Of a DNA stretch of 64,000 bases, positions 799 through 64,000 are shown in pieces (the stretch's first letter is position 1; every line of letters starts with the position of its first letter). A model generated the notes under the pieces. That model was not told the origin of the DNA and did no database searches. It saw only the letters and a list, made by a program, of their open reading frames with translations. This DNA comes from an uncultured Gemmatimonadales bacterium (GTDB lineage: Bacteria; Gemmatimonadota; Gemmatimonadetes; Longimicrobiales; RSA9): positions 5,248,001 to 5,312,000 of the forward strand of contig OY970192.1 of assembly GCA_963708135.1 (NCBI GenBank), read 5' to 3'. Position numbers and translations under genes: made by a program.

Positions 799-1941
799 TC
801 AGTCGGGTCCGGAGCCGCGGAAGCGGTCGAGCCGGAACGGTGTAAGGTCGAACGCCGTCGTGCCGGTCAGGGCGAGGTCCGCCAGGATCTCGCCGATCGC
901 GGGCGAGAACTTGAAGCCGTGGCCCGAGCACGGGCTGGCCACGAGCACCGCCGGGTGCGCCGGGTGCGCATCGATCAGGAAATGCGAGTCCGGCGTGTTC
1001 GTGTACATGCAGGCGGCCGTTTCGGTGCACGGCCCCGCCGCCGCCGGCAGGTACGCCCGCACGAGGTCCCCCAGGGGCGCGACCTCCGCCGGCTTCACCT
1101 CCCGCCTCAGCGCTTCGGGGCGCGACACCGCCTCGCCGTGGTGGTGGGCCGCCACCTTGACGCCGTGCCCGGTGTCGGGGAAGCCGTACCATACGCGGCC
1201 CGGCGAGAGCTCGTGCAGGAAGATCGGGAAGCGCTCGGGCGCGTAGAGCGGCGTCGGCACCGATGGGCCGAACCAGGCGAGCACCGCCCGCTCGATCTCG
1301 AGCGGAAGCGCCAGCTCCGGCACGAGGCCGCCAAGCCATGCCCCGGCCGCGAGGATCAGCCGTGCCGCCGCGTAGCGGCCGCCCGCGGTACGCACCTCGA
1401 CCACGTCGCCGTCCGCCGTCCAGGAGACGACCGGCTCGCCGAGCCGCAGGTCCGCGCCGGCTGACCCTGCCAACCCGAGCTGCGCCGCGATCGCCCGCTC
1501 CGGGAAGAGCAGTCCCGCGCGCGGCTCCAGGACCGCCACCGAGTCGTCCGGCGGACGGAATCCCGGCACGCGACGCCGCACCTCGTCCGCCGTGAGCACC
1601 TCGTGGGCGAGGCCGTGGGTCTCCGCGCTCCGGAGCGCGCCCGCCACCAGCTCGCCGTCGGGCGGGCCGACCATCAGCCCGCCGGTCCGCACCAGCAGTC
1701 GCGCACCGGTCCGCTCCTCGAGCCGCTCCCACAGGGCGTAGGCCCGCTGTACCAGCGGCACGTAGAGCGGGTGCTCGAAGTAGGCCTCCCGGATGATCCG
1801 CGAGCGCCCGTGCGAGGAGCCCAGCGCGTGGGGCGGCGCGTACCGGTCCAGCCCCAGCACCCGCGCCCCGCGCCCCGCCGCCTCGGCCGCCGCCGCGCTC
1901 CCCATCGCCCCGAGCCCCACCACGATCACGTCGTACGCCAT
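799..1941 (-). CDS. solA: N-methyl-L-tryptophan oxidase / monomeric sarcosine oxidase family
   Basis: GLGAMG FAD motif, GSSHGRSRIIR, CMYTNTPDSHFLID, SGHGFKF. Confidence 0.9.
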   Translation of the reverse strand: MAYDVIVVGLGAMGSAAAAEAAGRGARVLGLDRYAPPHALGSSHGRSRIIREAYFEHPLYVPLVQRAYALWERLEERTGARLLVRTGGLMVGPPDGELVAGALRSAETHGLAHEVLTADEVRRRVPGFRPPDDSVAVLEPRAGLLFPERAIAAQLGLAGSAGADLRLGEPVVSWTADGDVVEVRTAGGRYAAARLILAAGAWLGGLVPELALPLEIERAVLAWFGPSVPTPLYAPERFPIFLHELSPGRVWYGFPDTGHGVKVAAHHHGEAVSRPEALRREVKPAEVAPLGDLVRAYLPAAAGPCTETAACMYTNTPDSHFLIDAHPAHPAVLVASPCSGHGFKFSPAIGEILADLALTGTTAFDLTPFRLDRFRGSGPD

Positions 1942-61654: not shown

Positions 61655-62428
61655 CTATGTCCGCGAGAACAGGGCGAAGCGGCCGCCCTGCGGGTCCTTG
61701 CAGGCGCCGATGCGGCCGCCGCCCGGGACCTCCATCGGGCCGTGGATCACGGTTCCGCCCGCCCTCCGGACGCGCTCCAGCGCGGCGTCGAGGTCCTCGA
61801 CGTTCACGTAGTAGAGCCAGTAGGGCGGGGTGGTCATGGCGTCCGGCTCGAACATCGCGCCCGTGGCCACGTCCTCGGGCTCGTCGGCGGAGCGGAACGT
61901 GAGGTAGGGTCCCGCCTCGCCCATGTCGATCGTGCCCGCGTGCTGCCAGCCGAACAGCTCGGAGTAGAACGCCCAGGCGCTCTCCCGGCCCGTGGTGTGC
62001 AGCTCGTGCCAGCCCACGAAGCCCGCCTTCGTCCGGTCGAAGCCCGGCGCTTCGTTCAGGCGCTGGAGCAGCGCGATGACCGCTCCCTGCGGGTCGGCGA
62101 TCACGGCGAAGCGGCCCACCTCCGGGATGTCGGTGCCCGGCACCAGGACCGTGCCGCCCAGCTCCTGCGCGTGCCCGGTCGCCCTGTCAGCATCATCGAC
62201 GGCGACGAACCCCGCCCAGCGCGGCGGCACCCCGGCGCGGGCCTCCTCCTCGGGCAGCGGGCCGATCCCGCCGATCGTCGTCTCGCCCACCGTCCACATG
62301 ACGTACGGCTGCTCGCCGCCGCTCCACTCCTGCGTCCCCCAGCCCGTGACCTCGGTGTAGAAGGACCGCGCCGCCTCCCGGTCGGTGGTCCAGAGGTCGT
62401 ACCACACGAAGCGTCCCTTGCCGGCCAT
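61655..62428 (-). CDS. VOC/glyoxalase family protein, two domains
   Basis: FVWYDL..FYTEVTGW, GRFAVIADPQGA, WHEL, DPQGGRFAL; RBS AAGGAGG. Confidence 0.93.
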   Translation of the reverse strand: MAGKGRFVWYDLWTTDREAARSFYTEVTGWGTQEWSGGEQPYVMWTVGETTIGGIGPLPEEEARAGVPPRWAGFVAVDDADRATGHAQELGGTVLVPGTDIPEVGRFAVIADPQGAVIALLQRLNEAPGFDRTKAGFVGWHELHTTGRESAWAFYSELFGWQHAGTIDMGEAGPYLTFRSADEPEDVATGAMFEPDAMTTPPYWLYYVNVEDLDAALERVRRAGGTVIHGPMEVPGGGRIGACKDPQGGRFALFSRT

Positions 62429-62563
62429 GCTGCCCTCCTTCGTATCGGGATCGAGGCGGTCTCTGTGCACGCCTCCATCCATACGTCGAACGAGCCCGGC
62501 CGGCATCGACACGCCCTCCCCGATCCGCCGCCAGTCGCCGGGCGCAGCGCGCAACAGGCACGC

Positions 62564-63454
62564 TCAGCCGCCCGGACCCTGCTCCTGCGGCCCGCATGCC
62601 AGCGCCGCGACCTGCCGCTCCCACTCGCCTTCGTCGCGCGCCTTGCGCGCCCGGAAGTTGATGCCGAGCGTGCCGAACTCCGCCGCGCTCGACGCCTGCG
62701 GCGCGCCGGCGAACACGTCCGCCCGCCAGGTGATCTCGAATCCCGTGAATCCCGCGGCCACGACCGTGGCCTGGAGCTCCGCTTCCAGCAGAGCGCCCGC
62801 GATTCACCCCTTCCACAGATCGATGTCGCGGCGGGCGCCCTCGCCCACCGGCTTCTGCACCAGGATGTCCGCCAGCTGGAGGCGCCCGCCCGGCCGGAGC
62901 ACGCGCGCCATCTCGCCCAGCCCCGCCAGCTTGTCCGGAAACAGGTTCAGCACCCCGTTCGAGATCACGACGTCCGCCCATCCGTCCGGCACCGGCAGCG
63001 ACTCGGCCAGCCCTTCCCGGAACTCGACGTGCGAGGCACCCATCCTGGCCGCCGCCGCCCGTGCCTTCGTCAACATCGCCGGCGTCATGTCCACCCCGAT
63101 CACCCGCCCCTCGGGACCCACCATCTTCCCCGCGATCAGACTGTCGATGCCCGCGCCCGCCCCGACGTCCACCACCCGCTCGCCCCGACCCGGTGGGCCG
63201 AGGCTGAACGGATTCCCCGTCCCCGCGAACGACGCGATCGACTCCTCCGGCACTCCCTCGAGCCAGGCTTCCTCGTAGCGGAGGAGCCGCGCCAGCGGCC
63301 GCCCAGTGTGGAAGTGGAAGCCCCGCTCTGGATCCGCCGCCACCGTCGCGTACTCCTCCTGGATCGCCTCCCGCAGCCGCTCGACGTCGAGGCCCTCCGT
63401 CGGCCGCGCGACGTGGGGCAGCGTCTGCGCCGGAGCACGTCCCCTTCCTGCCAT
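62564..63454 (-). CDS. ArsM-like SAM-dependent methyltransferase, probable selenoprotein (in-frame TGA at 62804-62806)
   Basis: GNP..GERVVDVGAGAGID, VIGVDMT, DVVISNGVLNL; WKG-TGA-IAGALLE continues in frame for 79 more residues; SECIS-like hairpin follows the TGA. Confidence 0.85.
62776..62794 (-). promoter_or_regulatory. Candidate bacterial SECIS element
   Basis: GCTCTGCT-GGA-AGCGGAGC 8-bp stem starting 9 nt after the UGA, with G in the loop at +18. Confidence 0.65.
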
Positions 63455-63508
63455 CTCGACCTCCCGGATCCTGGCGTGGTCGGGCCCCCTCCCCGGCGGA
63501 GCGGCCCC

Positions 63509-63552
63509 TTGACGCCGGTGGTTGTTCCGCTACTCTATGGAGCATTGGAATA
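63509..63552 (+). promoter_or_regulatory. Promoter and imperfect palindromic operator of the ArsR-rhodanese gene
   Basis: TTGACG-16-TACTCT; TACTCTA-N8-TGGAATA overlapping the -10. Confidence 0.55.
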
Positions 63553-63568
63553 CGACGCAAGGGACGAC

Positions 63569-64000
63569 ATGGGACACCGCGAGCTCAAGGATCCGCTCTA
63601 TCAGCAGTTCGCCCGCATCGGCGACGCCCTCGGCAGCCCTCGCCGCATCGAGCTCCTCGACCTGCTGGCGCAGGGCGAGAAGACCGTCGAGCGGCTGGCG
63701 GAGCAGGCGGCGATGCCGGTGAAGAACACCAGCGCGCACCTGCGCGTGCTGCGGCAGGCACGCCTCGTCGAGACGCGGCGGAACGGCACGTTCGTCCACT
63801 ACCGCCTTGCCGGCGACGACGTCTTCGACCTGCTCCGCGCGCTCCAGATCGCGGCCCGGAACCGTCTCGCCGAGGTGGAGCAGGTCACGAACCTGTACCT
63901 GACGCGCCGCGACGCGCTCGAGCCGGTCACGGGCGAGGAGCTGCGTCGCCTGGTGCGGGAGGGTGGCGTGACGGTCCTGGATGCGCGCCCGCGTGAGGAA
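63569..64000 (+). CDS. ArsR/SmtB regulator fused to a rhodanese domain (3' partial; absent from the ORF track)
   Basis: MGHRELKDPLYQQFARIGDALGSPRRIELLDLLAQGEKTVERLA..NTSAHLRVLRQARLVETRR..HYRLA...VTVLDARPREE. Confidence 0.92.
   Translation, partial: MGHRELKDPLYQQFARIGDALGSPRRIELLDLLAQGEKTVERLAEQAAMPVKNTSAHLRVLRQARLVETRRNGTFVHYRLAGDDVFDLLRALQIAARNRLAEVEQVTNLYLTRRDALEPVTGEELRRLVREGGVTVLDARPREE

Follow-up and report, generated by a model that had tools for sequence, protein, structure and literature searches.

The window analyzed here is a 64,000-nucleotide (nt) stretch of the genome of an uncultured Gemmatimonadales bacterium, and it lies at positions 5248001-5312000 of a single 5.45-Mb contig (C1). 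Close to its end, on the minus strand, is a methyltransferase gene with an in-frame TGA codon. A preliminary description of this DNA had proposed that two open reading frames (ORFs) separated by that TGA form one gene for a 296-amino-acid (aa) selenoprotein. The frame was confirmed: the ORFs 63454..62804 (216 aa plus the TGA) and 62761..62564 share one frame of the minus strand, and 63454..62564 reads as a single 296-codon frame with one in-frame TGA at 62806..62804. The gene starts at ATG 63454..63452, with a Shine-Dalgarno-like GGGAGG 5 nt ahead of it (63460..63465, minus strand, by direct sequence reading), and ends at the terminator TGA 62566..62564. The 296-aa read-through product, ...DIDLWKG-U-IAGALLEAEL..., would carry selenocysteine (Sec) at residue 217 (U217). 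It has an S-adenosylmethionine (SAM)-binding motif I at residues 94-105 (VVDVGAGAGIDS; 63140..63175, minus strand) and a sole cysteine, Cys286 (62597..62599, minus strand). The latter is the last residue of a C-terminal helix (residues 275-286), as judged from the sequence, the C-terminal tails of the family and an AlphaFold2 model.

The protein database stores the product of this gene as a 216-aa protein (P0002), as had been foreseen in the suggestion that standard annotation would truncate it. By a manual count of the match table, ∼51 of the 120 best database matches are 209-241 aa long and cover 66-73% of the query, and the four short matches that were aligned stop exactly before the Sec column. 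This output of the gene callers, together with the assignment of TGA as a stop in translation table 11, is what can be said for a true stop codon, which would imply a pseudogene, an error in the sequencing or a deliberately truncated 216-aa methyltransferase followed by an unrelated ORF. The aligned full-length matches have 8 Cys, 3 Trp, 1 Tyr and 1 garbled residue at the Sec column. The Trp residues belong to three JGI metagenome proteins (P0003, P0004 and P0006), and they could be taken to mean that the UGA is read through as another residue (Trp, Cys or Gly) by a near-cognate or recoded tRNA. Some pipelines chose a code with TGA=Trp, and it is likely that the gene caller read the TGA under that code in these three proteins; the terminator of the window gene itself is a TGA, which speaks against such a recoding. 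The Tyr is found in P0018.

At the DNA level, only Sec or Cys codons occupy this column. The 102 homologous loci, which represent seven or more phyla, have TGA in 92 cases and TGC or TGT in 10. The preliminary description had regarded TGG or TGC in close relatives as the mark of a sequencing error or nonsense mutation; the four closest orthologues, from related genomes (63-72% identity), carry TGA in 4/4. A pattern scan with one genome per species yielded 80 loci (TGA 76, TGC 4). In one Chloroflexota class the gene was present in 11 of 201 sampled genomes, and the ten new loci comprised 8 TGA and 2 TGT forms. Among the relatives, a more remote sub-branch contributed 3 TGA and 4 TGT/TGC forms. 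A TGA common to 92 loci of many phyla, with Cys in the rest, is difficult to reconcile with a true stop, and an alternative residue that is always Cys among the DNA-level loci disfavors insertion of a residue other than Sec. Three of four checked genomes with Cys forms have kept selD, so that Cys in those genomes did not arise simply from loss of the Sec trait.

Conservation continues in frame beyond the TGA, as had been expected of wider homologues. When compared with eight relatives, the window protein is 78-87% identical over codons 218-272 and 62-78% identical over codons 27-216, and third-position differences dominate. Judged from this substitution pattern, the frame past the TGA is under purifying selection; residues 218-272 are absent from the 216-aa product, and their apparent conservation again argues against a true stop. 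In a quick maximum-likelihood tree (IQ-TREE), from which 4 of 8 canonical ArsM loci were dropped for their short alignment span, a branch with 100% SH-aLRT support set the 100 family rows apart from the 4 canonical rows that remained. The Cys forms were placed at three or more spots inside Sec clades in this tree, and Sec, which occupies 90 of the 100 rows, is by this reconstruction the ancestral or dominant state of the clade. On one Gemmatimonadota contig (L054 682-2163), the methyltransferase frame has no stop and continues into a second, different methyltransferase-like ORF.

A hairpin, GCUCUGCU-GGA-AGCGGAGC, is found within the coding sequence at 62794..62776 (minus strand), starting 9 nt past the UGA, with 17 nt from the UGA to the loop. 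The 8-bp stem and G-led loop are as first described, and two further pairs extend the stem to 62771..62797. The bacterial selenocysteine insertion sequence (bSECIS) rules in the Figure 2 legend of PMC13188914 ask for a loop of 3-9 nt on a stem of 4-16 bp, G in the first two loop positions, a distance of 16-37 nt from the UGA, and a minimum free energy of -7.5 kcal/mol or lower. All four constraints are satisfied by the window hairpin (GGA loop, 8 bp, 17 nt, -16.0 kcal/mol), by 77 of the 92 Sec forms and by 0 of the 10 Cys forms. Folded alone, the 27-nt hairpin piece gave -16.0 kcal/mol (z = -2.92), and 0/200 shuffles folded as well.

Among 84 TGA-bearing homologues that are gapless in this region, the eight pairs of the hairpin are formed in 90.1% of cells, when compared with 35-49% after a shift of the 3′ partner by 1-3 columns. 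Changes on both sides of a pair occur in 5 of the 8 pairs (46 cells), and the observed covariation score was reached by 0/500 column shuffles, a comparison that is inflated by relatedness and in which a structure taken from a member is favored over its slid versions. The contrast between Sec and Cys forms is the stronger control: of the 8 pairs, the 92 Sec forms have 7.1 on average and the 10 Cys forms 3.6 (Mann-Whitney p about 1e-7, with kin that are non-independent). A covarying hairpin that tracks the TGA and is confined to TGA forms would be expected neither of a true stop nor of read-through by another residue.

Three points count against a SECIS function. The fold of the 63-nt context is ordinary for GC-rich DNA (z = -1.11; 21/200 shuffles equal or better), so the case for the hairpin rests on comparison rather than on energy. 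Fifteen of the 92 Sec forms fail one bSECIS constraint, mainly by a loop G outside the first two positions; most are near misses, such as a loop CCCGU or a slightly weak stem. One locus (L058), with a four-codon deletion there, has no hairpin altogether. A scan of 62400..63600 against Rfam at E<=1 returned no match and no bacterial SECIS family, and is uninformative either way. On the comparative evidence, the hairpin behaves as a SECIS element.

The machinery for Sec insertion was searched for in the genome, and the check on selA, selB, selC and selD proposed beforehand gave selA, selB, selD and a tRNA-Sec, the protein matches all exceeding curated cut-offs. The scores were 472 bits for selA (cut-off 22.8), 319.5 bits for selB (cut-off 242; 343.9 bits when an adjoining match in the same frame is added), and 382.5 bits for selD at C1:4174852-4175766, minus strand (cut-off 125). 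The tRNA-Sec has the anticodon TCA. The selD gene carries one in-frame TGA itself and is a Sec form of selenophosphate synthetase. Complete Sec machinery is a further argument against a true stop, and the presence of tRNA-Sec and SelB disfavors decoding of the UGA as any other residue.

These data suggest that (i) the TGA at 62806..62804 is very probably decoded as Sec, with SelB and Sec-tRNA brought in by the hairpin 9 nt downstream, and the product is a 296-aa class I SAM methyltransferase of the ArsM fold with Sec217 at the site of Cys224 of ArsM, presumably beside the methyl group of SAM; and (ii) a true stop is highly improbable, and insertion of some other residue at the UGA hardly to be expected. 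Taken as a whole, we give the explanation developed here, of which the Sec decoding is the base, a probability of roughly 0.85; the proposals on substrate and partners made below are held with less assurance.

The assignment to the ArsM fold rests on several comparisons. Pfam recognized only class I methyltransferase domains (Methyltransf_31/25/11), spanning residues 90-202, in which motif I residues G100, G102 and D104 are invariant across 65 family members. The best solved relatives by sequence are the ArsM of Chlamydomonas (5evj, phmmer E 2.8e-26) and that of Cyanidioschyzon (4fr0 and 4kw7, E 1e-23). An AlphaFold2 model built from the 65 family members (pLDDT 94.4, pTM 0.92) was compared with the PDB by Foldseek; its best fold was Cyanidioschyzon ArsM (CmArsM) 4fr0 (E 6.5e-19, TM 0.64, 32% identity), and further matches were CmArsM 6cx6, Chlamydomonas ArsM (CrArsM) 5evj and human AS3MT 8xt7 (E 6.5e-19 to 3e-16, TM ∼0.6). 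An ArsM-type class I SAM methyltransferase fold is thereby indicated by both the phmmer match to 5evj and the match of the model to 4fr0.

In the HMMER alignment (chain numbering), U217 is aligned with the As(III)-binding Cys224 of CmArsM, in agreement with the earlier claim that Sec replaces the conserved ArsM cysteine. The ArsM-like identity proposed at the outset holds for the fold, with its matches to 4fr0 and 5evj, and fails for the other conserved cysteines of ArsM, which are missing. Gly167 lies opposite Cys174 of CmArsM and Thr79 opposite Cys72; the C72A mutant chain 5eg5 has Ala exactly at the latter column. Residues 1-216 contain no cysteine, hence no counterpart of Cys44, and Cys286, the only Cys of the window protein, is not shared by the whole family. 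All 102 loci have Gly at position 167 and T, V, I or M at position 79, whereas eight canonical ArsM paralogues of related genomes have Cys at all three columns. The ArsM survey PMC5552862 asked for three or more of cysteines 44, 72, 174 and 224; all 102 loci keep one of the four columns, as Sec in the Sec forms. The protein thus falls outside the published definition of ArsM because Cys72, Cys174 and the N-terminal Cys are all lost, and the sole conserved Cys/Sec (redox) residue of the clade is the Sec.

Selenoproteins of this kind have been known since 2007, and the window gene belongs to a catalogued family, in which it is a Cys-poor variant. Table 1 of PMC13188914 includes, among experimentally verified prokaryotic selenoproteins, an "arsenite methyltransferase, NF008823, UxxG, 1 Sec" (citing Fomenko et al., 2007, Science), which bears out the remark in the preliminary description that Sec-containing methyltransferases had been noted in earlier surveys. 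The same source lists three fused Sec-methyltransferase families, which it attributes to Haft and Tolstoy (2025), and describes the biological roles of Sec-bearing ArsM-like enzymes as largely unresolved. The older review PMC9312934 also mentions a Sec-containing arsenite methyltransferase; the GOS paper refers to this family in passing, citing earlier work, and the Sargasso Sea paper does not mention it. A full-text search of a limited literature collection found no paper on the Cys-poor clade or its rhodanese context.

The window protein and the catalogued Sec arsenite methyltransferase, compared by the description in the table only, have in common the ArsM-type fold, U-x-x-G (here U-I-A-G) at the catalytic or As-binding Cys column, and a SECIS just downstream within the coding sequence; the window protein scores below the cut-off of NF008823 (204.2 vs. 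263 bits). With canonical ArsM/AS3MT (4fr0, 4fsd, 6cx6, 5evj and 8xt7) it shares the fold, the SAM motifs and the Cys224 column, which here is Sec, but the family differs by Thr79 for Cys72, by Gly167 for Cys174, by its separate clade and by its neighbors. The best-scoring models for the methyltransferase part were the NCBIfam selenoprotein "exception" models NF041537 (ArsM/AhpD; 230.9 bits vs. cut-off 510), NF047649 (methyltransferase/UXPK-star; 205.9 vs. 460) and NF041536 (ArsM/DUF2284; 202.6 vs. 575), which have the UxxG Sec site in common with it according to the table of PMC13188914. The window protein stays far under all three cut-offs and, unlike NF041537 and NF041536, has no AhpD or DUF2284 domain and a single Sec. 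It also lacks the second Sec and C-terminal UXPK of NF047649, its C-terminus being ...ACGPQEQGPGG with one in-frame TGA in the gene, and none of 41 related genomes reached the NF047649 cut-off.

Divergent from the methyltransferase gene, a regulator gene of 233 aa starts at 63569 on the plus strand and runs to 64000 and ∼270 nt beyond the end of the window; its product has an ArsR-type helix-turn-helix (HTH) domain and a C-terminal rhodanese domain (Pfam HTH_5 and Rhodanese). The 114-bp intergenic region between them (63455..63568, from the ORF positions) is presumed to be a shared control region. An operator search within it found only a short palindrome at 63463..63474, and no operator was identified. 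Of 91 family loci, 34, which belong to Gemmatimonadota, Actinomycetota and Chloroflexota, have an ArsR-rhodanese homologue beside the methyltransferase gene; this is a lower bound because many of these loci are short contigs. The rhodanese loop of the regulator reads C-R-G-x-[Y/F]-C, a two-cysteine variant of the active-site loop, in 32 of the 32 regulators that cover it (L034-L113). In 30 of the 32 the HTH half is free of Cys; any thiol-based sensing would therefore be placed in the rhodanese domain.

The known systems most like this arrangement are the sulfane-sulfur sensors of the BigR, SqrR and sHdrR type, ArsR-family proteins with persulfide dioxygenase-rhodanese operons, in which an ArsR-type HTH stands likewise beside a metallo-β-lactamase (MBL)-rhodanese protein (solved examples being 3tp9 and 5ve3) and a transporter. 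The regulators here differ in that most of them have no Cys in the HTH (30/32) and have instead a fused rhodanese with a C-R-G-x-Y-C loop, and the window regulator scored 42 bits against the BigR model NF040642 (cut-off 155).

Sulfur-handling proteins recur in the vicinity of the family genes. A persulfide-dioxygenase-like protein that joins an MBL fold to one or two rhodanese domains is encoded near the gene in 22 of 91 loci and a major facilitator superfamily (MFS) transporter in 26 of 91, and DsrE-like, OsmC-like and glyoxalase-like neighbors were seen in a few loci. A TusA domain is present in some 20 of the 120 homologues listed, which are 350-384 aa long, and the two of these that were aligned are Cys forms. 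Fused ORFs were also found, namely MBL-rhodanese-methyltransferase (P0125, 5 members), the membrane protein DedA-rhodanese-methyltransferase (P0126) and MFS-methyltransferase (P0122); P0122, P0125 and P0126 all end exactly at the Sec column. Proteins joining a DsbA-like domain to the methyltransferase (P0131, P0133 and P0137) belong to a Cys-type sub-branch.

Past the regulator of the window genome (L125 768-1127, plus strand) there is a 119-aa ORF with no Pfam match, followed by a PIN-domain gene (1202-1597, minus strand). At this spot beyond the regulator other genomes have MBL-rhodanese and MFS genes, and the window genome has neither. On the other side of the methyltransferase gene, directly downstream, lies a gene for a two-domain glyoxalase/vicinal oxygen chelate (VOC) protein (61655..62554, minus strand), which matches the NCBIfam model for KbpA weakly (85 bits against a cut-off of 250). 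It was considered as a conserved partner and dropped, because no homologue occurs in the 91 family loci.

Elsewhere in the genome, at C1:2829918-2830736 (minus strand), there is a canonical arsM paralogue with all the ArsM Cys motifs, two genes away from an Acr3-type gene. This paralogue is interrupted by an in-frame TAA (...DMT*EML...) and is a pseudogene or a sequencing error; its neighbors were examined as far as C1:2827969.

Which substrate the Sec enzyme acts on is the point at which the evidence divides. The protein could be a working arsenic methyltransferase with Sec in place of Cys224, whose substrate would be either As(III), with small thiols as co-ligands, or a compound for which one protein ligand is enough, such as dimethylarsenite. 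The best NCBIfam, PDB-sequence and fold matches include only ArsM/AS3MT, Sec sits exactly at the As-binding position, an ArsR-family regulator is adjacent, and the UxxG motif is that of the catalogued Sec-ArsM family. Nevertheless, one of four conserved cysteines is kept, when compared with the three or more demanded by the criterion in PMC5552862, and the scores lie under every ArsM cut-off. The recurring neighbors are rhodanese, MBL-rhodanese, TusA and DsrE proteins, and it is the canonical arsM, elsewhere in the genome, that lies near Acr3. None of the 91 family loci contained Acr3, in a search for this carrier alone in which the control loci of canonical ArsM, ∼3.5 kb long, also gave 0 and were uninformative. 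We consider arsenic methylation an unlikely function.

As an alternative to canonical arsenite methylation, we tentatively propose that this clade methylates sulfur or selenium (a chalcogen) held on the selenolate. Two considerations favor such a substrate. One protein ligand cannot provide three-coordinate As(III) binding of the ArsM type, which makes a chalcogen the preferred candidate, and the company of rhodanese, TusA, DsrE and MBL-rhodanese proteins points to a sulfane-sulfur or selenium atom. Whatever probability is given neither to chalcogen nor to arsenic methylation is left to other substrates. A functional analogy, and not a family assignment, is provided by MddH and MddM2, small UbiE-type methyltransferases that methylate H2S and MeSH (PMC12904073; PMC11445057). 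Like the window protein they are small class I SAM methyltransferases, cytosolic or membrane-bound, and they detoxify sulfide; neither Sec nor a covalent enzyme-bound intermediate is reported for them.

For chalcogen methylation the following sequence of events can be envisaged. The selenolate of Sec217 might capture a sulfane-sulfur or selenium atom, possibly delivered by a rhodanese- or TusA-type carrier, as Enz-Se-S(H) or Enz-Se-Se(H), and SAM would methylate the terminal atom on the selenolate. A thiol, either Cys286 where present or a small thiol, could release methanethiol or methaneselenol, so that the cell would rid itself of reactive sulfur or selenium in a methylated form that is volatile or can be exported. 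The ArsR-rhodanese protein would control expression. It is a more speculative step, and one that we regard as doubtful, to see in the Sec-dependent chalcogen methyltransferase, the ArsR-rhodanese sensor, the MBL-rhodanese protein and the MFS exporter an undescribed module for the disposal of reactive sulfur or selenium.

Several findings weigh against the proposed chalcogen substrate and its module. All of the closest relatives with a solved structure or a name are arsenite methyltransferases, and the CX4C dithiol in the rhodanese loop of the regulator could equally bind As(III). MFS exporters occur in arsenic clusters too. The positive control for the absence of Acr3 from the 91 loci was uninformative. 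The fused ORFs are known from short metagenome contigs and are possible gene-calling artefacts. The window genome has none of these partners but the regulator next to the methyltransferase gene: its best MBL-rhodanese match is elsewhere on the chromosome, at ∼C1:136,700-138,000, a tblastn search for MBL-rhodanese beside the regulator matched only the rhodanese domain of the regulator itself, and an MFS query at E<=1e-10 had no match in the genome.

What is added here to the catalogued family is the contrast in hairpin between Sec and Cys forms, the failure of the published ArsM definition and of all NCBIfam cut-offs, and the ArsR-rhodanese/MBL-rhodanese/MFS context with its fusions. This methyltransferase family is systematically mis-called, being stored as truncated proteins of ∼216 aa or with Trp in place of Sec. 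The question of the substrate of a Sec-methyltransferase becomes one for the bench, for which a few substrates, a candidate sensor and a candidate operator region can be named. If the proposed module were real, members of Gemmatimonadota, Chloroflexota, Actinomycetota, Acidobacteriota and other phyla would share a route for the disposal of reactive sulfur or selenium.

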